A DNA stretch of 52,783 bases from Candidatus Hodarchaeota archaeon. Lineage in GTDB: Archaea; Asgardarchaeota; Heimdallarchaeia; Hodarchaeales; Hodarchaeaceae. The notes beneath the pieces were generated by a model, which saw only the letters and a list, made by a program, of their open reading frames with translations, did not search any database and was not told where the DNA came from. Where the stretch lies: positions 1 to 52,783 of the forward strand of contig JAHQWW010000015.1 of NCBI GenBank assembly GCA_029856365.1, written 5' to 3'. A program made the translations under genes and the position numbers. Below are positions 16,948 through 23,133 of this stretch, in pieces. Numbering within the stretch: position 1 is the stretch's first letter; every line of letters begins with the position of its first letter.

Positions 16948-17262
16948 GTGCAAATGACTAGTAATCCTGAAATTCCTGTTACAAATCTCCCGTTTCTTGA
17001 TGAAATTTTTTTAAACAGTCCTTTATGCCAAATCTGTGAATATGCAAGTATTTTTGGGGGAGTTTGCTCACTTCTGCTAAATCGAAGGATTCCAGTGAAT
17101 TTAATTGTCAAAAACTCTCAAATTGTGAGCTGCTCTGCACATCGTAACTGGATTCAAACTATAGGAGAACTTGGGGAATCTAGTCATTGGAATGAATTTA
17201 ATGAATGTGATGATGAGGACGAAATATCTAAACTAGATCAGGGTCAAGATCCATCAGGATAG
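16948..17262 (+). CDS. Small putative Zn-binding protein with acidic tail
   Basis: CQIC...C...CSAH; 5 bp upstream of the next gene. Confidence 0.6.
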   Translation: MQMTSNPEIPVTNLPFLDEIFLNSPLCQICEYASIFGGVCSLLLNRRIPVNLIVKNSQIVSCSAHRNWIQTIGELGESSHWNEFNECDDEDEISKLDQGQDPSG

Positions 17263-17267
17263 TTAAT

Positions 17268-19190
17268 TTGATGAATACAATGGAAGAATCTCCTCCTTTG
17301 GGAAAACTCAAATTTGATCCTTCTTTACAAGAACAGATTCTTCTTTCAAAAGTCCACAACAACAATTTATTAGTAGTATACTCCTTTGAGGAGGCTCTGA
17401 TACGCATTCAGGCGTTAATTATACTATTTTTCATCAATCAACATTCCAATCATCAAAACTCAAGAGTTCTGATCTTAACAAAAAGGGATAAACAACAGAA
17501 ATCTCGAACTCTCTTAAAATCCCATTTAACACAACCTACTACGGTTCTTAACGGATCTATCCTTCCAAATGCCAGAAAATTCGACTATAGTCGTTATTCA
17601 GTAATTTTTTCTACTCCTAGAACTGCAAAAAACGACCTGAAAGAAGAATTTTTCTTAACTAATCATTTTTCTCTAATAATGGTTGATCAGGCGGAGATGG
17701 GGTCTTCATCGAGCTCACTTAGGTACTTAGTTAATAAATTAACCAATTTTCGTATGATTGGATTCACCAGGGTGACCTCCACAGAACAGTTAGAAAATAT
17801 TTGTAAAAACCTTCAACTAACTGAAGTAGTTCAGTTAGAAGAACCATTTTCAGCACGCGAAAGATCAAACATCCAGCATTACTCCATCCCCTTACCTCAA
17901 GAATACTTTTTCTTGCTTGAGATTTTAAACCGAATAAAAGAACATGAATTGGAGGAATTAGCAAAATTAGGTTTCAATGTTTCCTCTAAAAGTACCTATC
18001 GTGATATCACTGCGATTCATGAAGGTATTAAAGAAGATAACAGTACGAAGCAACTCATCCGTACATCTAACCTACTTCGAATTATGACTCTCCAAAAGAT
18101 CATCATTTCTCAAGGATTTCCCGCAGCTCTCAATTATTTTCACACTCTTGAATCACAGCTGGAAAAAGATCAAAAATTCCAAGGAAAGCAAAGTATTATT
18201 GAGTTTCTTAACGATTTAAAAATCAAGAAGCTGCAGGAATTTCTTGAAGTTCACAAGGATCTCCAACACCCTAAGTTAAATTTCCTCTTGAAAATAATAT
18301 CCCAATACCAAACTGGTATTTCCATTGTTAGTCATAATTATTACAATGCTGCTTATTTAAAGGATTATATAAGTCTACAGGGTTTTTCAGTAATCCAAAT
18401 AAATGACCCTGTCAGTTCTCTGTCAGATATCGACCTAGAACGAGCTATTTTACCACTTACAGAAAAAAAGGTTAACGTTTGTATTACAAATAATGTCAAT
18501 GAGATTATTGCTCGAAATGCTGAAGTAATCATTGCTTATTCTGTTACAGCTGATACCGTTGACACTCTGAATAATTTGAGTGTTAACATTCCTAAAGTTT
18601 TCTTATTATCAAAACAAACAAATGAAGAAGCCAGGTTATTTTATTTAAAAAAATTAGGTTCTAAGTCTCAGAAACAGATTTTAAACCTTAATGTTCTGAA
18701 TGAGAATTTAGAGAAACTAAAGGGAGATGGTTCTAGAATAAAACAAACTGTGGATCTAAAATCACTTGGTTCTTCCAGTAATGATGATTTATTGGATTCA
18801 AACGTCTCTATAGTCTTTAATAAGAAATTATTTGAGCTTGGAATCCCCTATTTGTTTTCGAAACAAGAATATTCAATTCATTCAAATGATAACTTTATTT
18901 TCCCTGGCTTTATTCTAGATCAAAAAATCTGTTTCCTATTACTAACTCCTGATACTATTGATTTCTTTCTGTCCTCAAAACCTCAACAATTTTTCAGTAT
19001 ATTATTTAAAGAATTTTCACATGTTCATTTGATCATTTTCCCTCACAGCTTAGCTAGCCTTAGTCTTGACTTTCGATGCGACATTCTTCATGCTGCTAAT
19101 CACCATAATGTATGGATATCTTTTCTCACTCAAGATCAAGATATTCCTAAGTTAGTCAAACGAGTTATTGACAAACCAATGTATACGTAA
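17268..19190 (+). CDS. Hef/FANCM/XPF-like protein with degenerate SF2 helicase and degenerate ERCC4 nuclease domains
   Basis: Hef layout (NLLVV, RVLIL, VIFSTPRT..NDL, FSLIMVDQAE, RMIGFT, IC.NL, HPKL) with Walker A and DEAH lost; C-terminal IVFNKK...PGFILDQKICFLLLT lacking ERK. Confidence 0.7.
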   Translation: MMNTMEESPPLGKLKFDPSLQEQILLSKVHNNNLLVVYSFEEALIRIQALIILFFINQHSNHQNSRVLILTKRDKQQKSRTLLKSHLTQPTTVLNGSILPNARKFDYSRYSVIFSTPRTAKNDLKEEFFLTNHFSLIMVDQAEMGSSSSSLRYLVNKLTNFRMIGFTRVTSTEQLENICKNLQLTEVVQLEEPFSARERSNIQHYSIPLPQEYFFLLEILNRIKEHELEELAKLGFNVSSKSTYRDITAIHEGIKEDNSTKQLIRTSNLLRIMTLQKIIISQGFPAALNYFHTLESQLEKDQKFQGKQSIIEFLNDLKIKKLQEFLEVHKDLQHPKLNFLLKIISQYQTGISIVSHNYYNAAYLKDYISLQGFSVIQINDPVSSLSDIDLERAILPLTEKKVNVCITNNVNEIIARNAEVIIAYSVTADTVDTLNNLSVNIPKVFLLSKQTNEEARLFYLKKLGSKSQKQILNLNVLNENLEKLKGDGSRIKQTVDLKSLGSSSNDDLLDSNVSIVFNKKLFELGIPYLFSKQEYSIHSNDNFIFPGFILDQKICFLLLTPDTIDFFLSSKPQQFFSILFKEFSHVHLIIFPHSLASLSLDFRCDILHAANHHNVWISFLTQDQDIPKLVKRVIDKPMYT

Positions 19191-22052: not shown

Positions 22053-22107
22053 AAGGGTACCACTATTTTTCCTGTGAGTTCAAGTAAGGGATAATTACTG
22101 AGTATAT

Positions 22108-23133
22108 TTATTTGGATGTAAAGTCTCGGACACCCTCGGTGGTAATCGCAAACTCAATTTTTCCATCAGGTAGCTCAGGACTTTTTGTTAACGAGGCAGT
22201 ACGTTTGACTGCTTTTCCCTTCCGGATGAAAATACGGGTAGTCACCGTATGACCAACAATATTGCCGCCAACAGGCTTATTCGGGTCTCCAAAGAACATT
22301 GCCTCAGGTTTAGCTGAGACTTGATTAGTCACGACACCAACACAATTCATTATTTCTGCTTGTTTGGCAATAAACGCTAAATATTTTCCAATCAGTTGTT
22401 GACGTTCAGCCAGTGTCCCGCGTCCTGCGAACTCGCTCCTAAAATGTGACATGAGAGAATCTACGATTATCAGACCAATGTTTGGAACCATAGTGAGCGC
22501 TTCTTCGGTGAGTGCCATCTGATGTTCACTATTGTAAGCTCTACCAACCGTAATTCTTGATAGTACTGTGTCTGGATCTATATCTAATGCCTCTGCCATT
22601 TGGACTATTCGATTGAACCTGAATGTCCCCTCTGAGTCGATCCAAATCACATCCTGATCGAGGTACTTTACACAATTGACTGCCAATTGGTGGGCAATTT
22701 GGGTCTTACCACATCCATTTTCTCCCGCAACTTCTGTGACACTTCCTGTCTCAAATCCTCCTCCAATAAGTTTGTCGAACGCTTTCGACCCTGTGGTTAA
22801 TTTTACCCGTGTTTTAGCTGCTTCTTCATAGTCTGTTCCTTTTTTCAATCCAAGGTCAAACTGTACCCTTGCTTCACGTATCAAAAGAGCTGCGGTTTTC
22901 TCTGCAATACCAGAAATTTCAGTTAATTGAGCCCGTGTTGCTAATGCAATCGCTTCTCGGCTTCCATACCCCGCTGTCTCTAACCTTTGTCTTGTAGTTG
23001 GACCTATGCCTGTTATTGTCTCTAAGAACGGTTTCTCTGAGGTTGTGGTCTTTTTTTTGCTCTTCTTTGTTTTTTTTATTTCAACTGGCTCTGGACTAAT
23101 TCCTTCTTCTTTTGTTTCGACTTTTGCCATCAT
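22108..23133 (-). CDS. radA: RadA/Rad51-family recombinase (divergent)
   Basis: N-terminal HhH (GIGP), TTGS..FD.L.GGG.ETG, GENGCGKTQ, IDSEGTF, IIVDSL, GRGTLAERQQ, TNQV, GGNIVGH. Confidence 0.9.
   Translation of the reverse strand: MMAKVETKEEGISPEPVEIKKTKKSKKKTTTSEKPFLETITGIGPTTRQRLETAGYGSREAIALATRAQLTEISGIAEKTAALLIREARVQFDLGLKKGTDYEEAAKTRVKLTTGSKAFDKLIGGGFETGSVTEVAGENGCGKTQIAHQLAVNCVKYLDQDVIWIDSEGTFRFNRIVQMAEALDIDPDTVLSRITVGRAYNSEHQMALTEEALTMVPNIGLIIVDSLMSHFRSEFAGRGTLAERQQLIGKYLAFIAKQAEIMNCVGVVTNQVSAKPEAMFFGDPNKPVGGNIVGHTVTTRIFIRKGKAVKRTASLTKSPELPDGKIEFAITTEGVRDFTSK

Follow-up and report, generated by a model that had tools for sequence, protein, structure and literature searches.

The 52,783-nucleotide contig JAHQWW010000015.1 (C138; called here, at its full length, the window) of a Candidatus Hodarchaeota archaeon (assembly of 4.24 Mb, 84% complete) carries a hef-like gene, a gene for an XPD-family helicase, and a radA gene between positions 16948 and 23133. 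All three are paralogs that exist in addition to the housekeeping copies. They are linked in related genomes and belong to a larger set of envelope and DNA-processing genes that recurs across Asgard families and shares a promoter signature. The Hef-like protein has lost the motifs of both catalytic centers and is under purifying selection; the motifs of RadA and XPD are intact. We are highly confident of the module, of its age, and of its co-regulation signature. Its function is proposed with more reserve: it may be a switchable recombination-plus-envelope program for cell-to-cell DNA exchange, whose chances we put a little short of even. The trio would most likely be the DNA-processing arm, recombining DNA from neighboring cells. 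The mode of DNA exchange and recombination in Asgard archaea, the archaea most closely related to eukaryotes, bears on the origin of sex, and the module offers named genes and a promoter signature testable in Hodarchaeales, which have recently been cultured.

Accessory paralogs are linked within the genus

The hef-like gene (17268 to 19190) lies on the forward strand; on the reverse strand, the radA gene (22108 to 23133, full-length) is separated by 55 bp from the gene for the iron-sulfur (Fe-S) helicase of the XPD family (20310 to 22052). Ending 5 bp before the hef-like gene is a small cysteine-rich open reading frame (ORF; 16948 to 17262, forward strand, start probably the ATG at 16954) of no known family. 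A preliminary description of the locus had reported these genes, orientations, and gaps, and the ORF coordinates bear them out. It had also proposed an accessory module beside the housekeeping Hef, XPD, and RadA, and canonical copies were indeed located on other contigs: an intact Hef of 752 amino acids on C9, RadAs on C34 and C91, and two further XPD-family genes on C96 and C106. With three XPD-family genes in this genome, counting the window copy, the helicase is not its sole XPD. RadA-like genes number up to five per genome in the genus. The C34 RadA passes the TIGR02236 cut-off of 361 with 425 bits, and the window RadA falls below it at 339.7.

Synteny was compared in 21 genomes of the same genus, that of Ca. 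Hodarchaeum mangrovi. A span of 17 kb takes in all three genes in 14 of these genomes, which are kin and not independent, and at least two of the three are linked in 18. This linkage exceeds chance. Synteny and genome-wide copies thus both agree with an accessory module, the genes being linked in relatives and not the sole orthologs. In nine relatives the hef-like gene and xpd stand directly tail to tail. In the window they are separated by a PIN/VapC-like gene (19234 to 19644, forward strand; Pfam PIN 35 bits, above cut-off), of which no homolog was found in the relatives' loci examined, and by a TPR pseudogene (19669 to 20229, forward strand; in-frame stops at 19894 and 20137), which has a large deletion relative to an intact gene of 544 amino acids, 60% identical, at the same position in genome G017. 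Both are passengers outside the conserved module.

The cysteine-rich ORF stands immediately 5′ of the hef-like gene in 18 of 19 loci, with a ratio of nonsynonymous to synonymous substitution rates (dN/dS) of 0.05 to 0.21. It had been taken for a zinc finger. Four cysteines (C27, C30, C40, and C62) are invariant, as that would have it, but no Pfam match above cut-off was obtained, and zinc binding is putative. A complex prediction with the Hef-like protein scored 0.00 with the cysteine-rich partner poorly folded, which counts neither for nor against an interaction. Small cysteine-rich ORFs also flank fragments of the larger cluster at both break points (30444 to 30764 in the window and L217, 1770 to 2108).

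A Hef paralog without catalytic motifs

The Hef-like protein scores 83 bits against NCBIfam Hef (cut-off 610). Its predicted structure (predicted local distance difference test score, 80.6) displays the Hef fold with a helical insert and two RecA-like domains, and the best Foldseek match of the model is Pfu Hef (E = 5e-24; profile E = 6.5e-16). In every aligned member of the genus, the Walker A (GKT), DExH, and V/VI (QRxGR) motifs of the helicase are absent. The GDY/ERK motifs of the nuclease, defined in Hef as GDXnERKX3D (PMC6320978), and the helix-hairpin-helix (HhH) pair are also gone, and the nuclease domain is missing altogether in six members. From these lost motifs the paralog is predicted to be inactive in both domains, and it is called here the dead Hef. 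It is under purifying selection: the gene is kept at full helicase length in 19 of the 21 relatives, with dN/dS of 0.09 to 0.21 and, since most dS values are near saturation, a single unsaturated pair at 0.15.

An exhaustive profile search with the dead Hef returned seven near-full-length clusters above 600 bits, the next full-length proteins scoring approximately 128 bits. These next relatives, as well as the second Hef of the sister-family genome G022, have intact helicase motifs and a dead nuclease; one of them shares neighbors with the locus (LuxC, YdjM, then small genes). The tree groups the G022 Hef with the dead clade (support 94/91, on long branches). Elsewhere, the Hef found in the cluster is intact in family f4, nuclease-dead in f2, f6, and G063, reduced to the helicase in G077, and dead and truncated in f3. 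Monophyly of all cluster Hefs is neither supported nor rejected (P = 0.14 in the approximately unbiased test). Because the nearest relatives of the dead Hef retain an intact helicase, the ATPase loss took place within Hodarchaeales and is a parallel to XPF rather than its ancestral state. This loss, confined to one genus plus the separate f3 case, was late and probably occurred more than once.

When compared with Hef, FANCM, and XPF (PMC6320978), the dead Hef shares the Hef fold, the helical insert, and a remnant ERCC4 domain but is without both catalytic centers and the HhH domain, whereas XPF retains the nuclease and FANCM the ATPase. XPF combines a dead helicase with an active ERCC4 nuclease and an HhH dimerization domain; in the dead Hef the nuclease motif and HhH are lost. 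Whatever the function of the module, these paralogs form a natural series from intact through FANCM-like with a dead nuclease to fully dead and nuclease deleted. The series would be an archaeal parallel to the origin of the eukaryotic XPF-family pseudo-enzymes, not its ancestor.

RadA and XPD paralogs with intact catalytic motifs

Pseudo-enzyme or paralog hallmarks had been noted in two of the three genes. RadA is a paralog but not a pseudo-enzyme, as its ATPase motifs are intact: it keeps the HhH domain, Walker A and B, the catalytic Glu, and loops L1 and L2, and scores 359.5 against PRK04301 (cut-off 259). Its clade is separate from the C34 and C91 RadAs. In all 17 rows of the genus alignment (16 genomes), FxxA is replaced by LK(K/P)G (LKKG in the window) and the ATP-cap Asp by Lys; the canonical copies have the Asp and mostly FxxA. 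FxxA mediates polymerization (PMC7837696), and the same Asp-to-Lys change stabilizes the RAD51 filament (PMC3753615). Given the loss of FxxA and the gain of the ATP-cap Lys, we infer that the paralog may form a private, stable filament. RadA duplication in Heimdallarchaea has been published (PMC12722695). Like archaeal RadA and those duplicates, the window RadA has full-length HhH and ATPase domains with intact catalytic and DNA-binding motifs; it differs in lacking FxxA, in its ATP-cap Lys, and in being tied to the cluster and its promoter.

The XPD-like helicase matches Helicase_C_2 and DEAD_2 above cut-off, has all helicase motifs I to VI and the Fe-S cysteines 106, 120, 125, and 169, and is predicted to be active. 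Its best PDB match is an archaeal XPD. It shares with the XPDs of Thermoplasma and Sulfolobus the four-cysteine Fe-S domain, all helicase motifs, and a similar length, and differs from them as one of three XPD-family genes in its genome and as a member of a cluster-specific clade. Trees of RadA and XPD were quick trees with support from the Shimodaira-Hasegawa-like approximate likelihood ratio test (SH-aLRT) only. In the XPD tree, the cluster copies from six families group in a single clade that excludes the other XPD-family genes (SH-aLRT 99); for the cluster RadAs, the long branches give no clear grouping.

Other RadA and XPD genes have neighborhoods of their own. The near-canonical C91 RadA (L002, 1 to 5115) stands head to head with a type IV pilus operon (pilin-like genes and a secretion ATPase), an arrangement repeated in G009 (L234, 2520 to 7880) that is a second candidate for DNA uptake. 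At the end of the contig, the frame of the C91 RadA reads on into a TPR-like sequence unrelated to it, through either fusion or misassembly. On C52 (L006, 1693 to 2991) a C-terminal RadA remnant of 59 amino acids is head to head with cdc6. Relatives have a full RadA of 342 amino acids at this place (L228 and L233), and the canonical C34 radA also lies about 2 kb from a cdc6. The 3.7-kb contig C71 (L005, 2 to 904) encodes an HhH domain that shares 56% identity with the N terminus of the window RadA and is fused to a helicase-like P-loop region, and this gene bears the cluster promoter motif described below (rank 114). The C106 gene (L004, 6439 to 8874) encodes an XPD/DinG helicase of 811 amino acids with an N-terminal Cas4-like nuclease region; it is kept across the genus, a few kilobases from the cdc6-linked RadA. 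Apparent Vps4 and ESCRT-III genes are found in G009 a few genes away from a fifth and divergent RadA-like gene (L232, 6468 to 12994). A second cluster-type XPD copy occurs at another locus of G018, with a weak RecA-like neighbor (L224, 4187 to 6818), and also in G020 and G004.

Relationship to eukaryotic repair proteins

The preliminary description saw in the trio a candidate proto-Fanconi and RAD51-paralog locus. Several features recall such a link with XPF/ERCC1/FAAP24, FANCJ/RTEL1, and RAD51B/C/D: the dead helicase resembles the state of XPF, the fold search with the dead Hef lists XPF and FANCM right after Hef, and the helicase-active, nuclease-dead state of the relatives is that of FANCM. 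Against direct descent stand the similarity scores, which were taken against solved structures and are not trees. The window RadA gave 218 bits with RAD51 and 202 with DMC1, versus 278 and 267 for the housekeeping RadA, and 53 bits versus 72 with both RAD51C and RAD51B. The dead-Hef profile gave no match to FANCM and E = 0.16 with XPF, against 188 and 68 bits, respectively, for the canonical Hef. The window helicase scored 131 bits with archaeal XPD, 45 with Chl1, and 25 with FANCJ and is, by this score test, no nearer to FANCJ/RTEL1/DDX11 than to XPD. Each eukaryotic counterpart tested, among them RAD51, RAD51C, FANCM, and XPF, thus gives a better score with the housekeeping copy. Moreover, the ATPase loss has the narrow distribution given above, and published trees place Rad51 and DMC1 outside all Asgard RadA (PMC12722695). 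That these genes are direct precursors of the eukaryotic proteins is highly improbable, and by the criteria applied the module falls outside Ced, Hef, XPF, and RAD51B/C/D.

The trio is part of a larger cluster

The repair trio in the preliminary description stands, but that description missed the other half of the module, with the envelope and VirB4-fold genes, which starts at 23319, immediately beyond the stretch it covered. The usual block in the genus comprises, in order, an Hrq1/MrfA helicase, a membrane protein, a TPR-Zn protein, a PD-(D/E)xK-like nuclease, the cysteine-rich ORF, the dead hef, xpd, an 865-amino-acid protein, radA, an immunoglobulin (Ig)-like protein of about 1,600 amino acids, a YdjM-like protein, an extracellular protein, a short ORF, and a RadB-like gene. 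In the window, the gene for the Ig-like repeat surface protein (23319 to 28127, forward strand; 1,602 amino acids) is head to head with radA. The protein has hydrophobic ends corresponding to an N-terminal signal and a C-terminal membrane anchor, with weak Pfam Big matches; it is present in the loci of 17 genomes, and related giants occur in other families. There follow, on the same strand, a YdjM-like membrane protein (28087 to 28734; Pfam YdjM E = 2.7e-5, below cut-off) and a membrane-anchored extracellular protein of no known family (28722 to 29795; two hydrophobic segments), the positions of both being kept in 13 loci. Next on that strand is what remains (29820 to 29906) of a short gene that relatives carry ahead of the RadB-like gene; it has FLKPKVIWIEY in common with the G014 gene.

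The fold of the 865-amino-acid protein is that of VirB4/HerA/TrwB, with a winged helix at the C terminus (Z = 21.1 against VirB4; root mean square deviation, 3.9; 297 residues aligned). Its homolog in f3/f4 was recognized by hhalign (97.7%, one pair compared), and proteins of 1,000 to 1,400 amino acids in f5, G048, and G077 were assigned as VirB4-like by position and appearance. The gene lies inside the radA-xpd operon in 7 genomes of the genus and beside xpd in both sister-family genomes. The cluster membrane proteins look M50-like or YdjM-like.

The cluster recurs in families f1 to f6 of Heimdallarchaeia and in G048, G063, and G077 of other Asgard classes; f3, f4, f5, f6, and these three genomes hold equivalent gene sets in shuffled order within 25 to 45 kb. 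Flanking genes are common only within a genus. The nuclease marker occurs as a single copy in f1 (14/16), f3 (23/26), f4 (5/5), and f6 (1/1). With one query it was not found in f5, f7, f14 (0/54), f17 (0/19), and nearly all of f11 (1/59), which does not imply absence; f5 holds other cluster genes. No description of this cluster was found in the literature searched.

HerA, DinG, and Hrq1-type helicases occur in defense systems. Together with the generic helicase matches given by PADLOC and a block that relocates and fragments, this would fit either a conjugative element that has been domesticated or an antiviral system built from a nuclease, helicases, and a HerA-fold protein. We consider this unlikely, since the genes are single-copy and near-universal within families, are under strong purifying selection, and give an XPD tree grouped by family. 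Neither the dead Hef nor the nuclease, the VirB4-like protein, or the membrane proteins drew a PADLOC match, and no integrase was recognized in the conserved gene set. An origin by domestication would be consistent with the DNA-exchange reading.

A shared promoter signal

The promoter motif consists of TTTY, three bases, and a TATA box. Its matrix was trained on 43 sites, drawn from two intergenic regions in other genomes, and was then applied to 3,296 genes of the window genome. The Ig operon (23248 to 23265, forward strand) ranked 2, radA-xpd (23212 to 23229, reverse strand) 3, the cysteine-rich ORF/dead hef operon (16882 to 16899, forward strand) 11, and the nuclease 12, these being orthologous to the training regions. 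Among held-out cluster-family genes, five of eight were in the top 113 (ranks 4, 19, 34, 63, and 113; hypergeometric P = 2e-6), and the other three look operon-internal. Cluster genes on other contigs were also picked out, a paralogous operon on C165 having the top score. The housekeeping radA and hef ranked between 2651 and 2981. A simple genome-wide count of TTTY before any TATA-like box gave no spacing preference, so the motif is not the general promoter. Outside the genus, cluster genes are often but not always top matches.

The consensus of the Sulfolobus damage response contains ANTTTC (PMC6061795), and the motif seems to resemble this element, a short, AT-rich likeness that serves as a lead only. 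With this lead, and with Hef, XPD, Hrq1/Hel308, RadA, RadB-like, and MmcB-like nuclease genes all of repair-type families, the cluster could be an inducible regulon for repair inside the cell only, at stalled forks or crosslinks, the function that the preliminary description had drawn by analogy. The envelope genes would then share the switch but serve another purpose, for instance aggregation or protection. We regard this as the less probable account, at about one chance in four, as it leaves unexplained the VirB4-fold gene in or beside the radA-xpd operon and the persistence of the envelope genes beside the enzymes across families.

Divergent TFB-like genes are found inside the clusters of G063 (L201, 15533 to 19229) and G077 (L204, 16734 to 18092) and are candidate readers of the unusual promoter. 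In the window genome no TFB-like gene was recognized beyond two ordinary TFBs.

Proposed function and mechanism

The envelope proteins, the VirB4-fold protein in the radA-xpd operon, and the private recombinase make DNA exchange with recombination the best fit. In Sulfolobales, Ups and Ced support DNA exchange followed by recombination (PMC11823120, PMC9905601); Ced/Ted import genes adjoin HerA/Rad50, and ups adjoins a helicase and an endonuclease (PMC9905601, PMC13705601, PMC11823120). With the Ups pili and Ced/Ted under Orc1-2/TFB3 in Sulfolobales and Thermoproteales (PMC9905601, PMC11823120, PMC6061795), the Asgard cluster shares chromosomal, co-regulated contact and membrane genes, a VirB4/HerA-fold protein (on C41 in the window genome), DNA-processing enzymes, a TTTC-type promoter element, and, in some clusters, TFB-like genes. 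It differs in its contact candidate, a giant Ig protein, in including private RadA, XPD, and Hef paralogs, in a VirB4-fold protein that lacks the Walker A motif of an ATPase, and in having no recognized CedA/VirB6 or pilin.

In the proposed mechanism, a dedicated factor would switch the genes on jointly through the TTTY-preceded TATA box, and the giant Ig protein would make cell contact. The small membrane proteins and the ATP-dead VirB4/HerA-fold protein may form a membrane platform for DNA. The PD-(D/E)xK-like nuclease and the helicases (XPD-type and Hrq1- or Hel308-type) would prepare single strands for strand exchange by the RadA paralog, helped by RadB-like proteins. The changed FxxA would keep this RadA out of housekeeping filaments, and the ATP-cap Lys would stabilize its own filament. 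The Hef paralog may bind branched DNA; in most lineages it would do so as an active translocase, and in this genus as a scaffold that needs no ATP.

Several observations weigh against this proposal. Walker A (GxxxxGK[ST]) was found in none of the 29 VirB4-like candidates, leaving the cluster without an evident pump, and Pfam and NCBIfam gave no match for a CedA/VirB6 channel or a VirB2-like pilin (without a profile-profile test against CedA). The missing pump and channel are what hold our confidence below even. Outside the genus, the motif is weaker and also turns up at genes that do not belong to the cluster. The block is also breaking up in the window genome, where the VirB4-like gene is on C41, the nuclease-Hrq1 segment on C115, and the paralogous operon on C165; the RadB-like gene was not found in this 84% complete assembly. 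Finally, co-regulation and linkage do not prove a physical machine.

That no pump or channel was found would suit a developmental or contact program (adhesion, fusion, or dormancy) with recombination on own or fused chromosomes and no DNA channel, as would the Vps4/CdvC-like MIT-AAA ATPase that heads the C165 operon. No fusogen was recognized, however, and the VirB4/HerA fold points to a DNA-transfer ancestry; we judge this program doubtful, somewhat more so than the repair regulon. In its fullest form, the DNA-exchange reading is of an undescribed and separately switched Asgard program, distinct from Ced and plasmid conjugation, that would combine cell contact with the exchange and recombination of DNA and would have a recombinase, helicases, and pseudo-enzymes of its own; our expectation for it is slightly lower than for DNA exchange as such.

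Further observations on the cluster

The paralogous operon of C165 (L215, 6161 to 16452) encodes, besides the MIT-AAA ATPase, a YdjM-like protein, an extracellular protein, a membrane-anchored VirB4-like protein that lacks Walker A, and a 1,088-amino-acid protein of unknown type, and is divergent from an M50-like membrane gene. In G026 (L163, 12743 to 15307), a family B DNA polymerase-like gene lies inside the cluster, directly 5′ of XPD.

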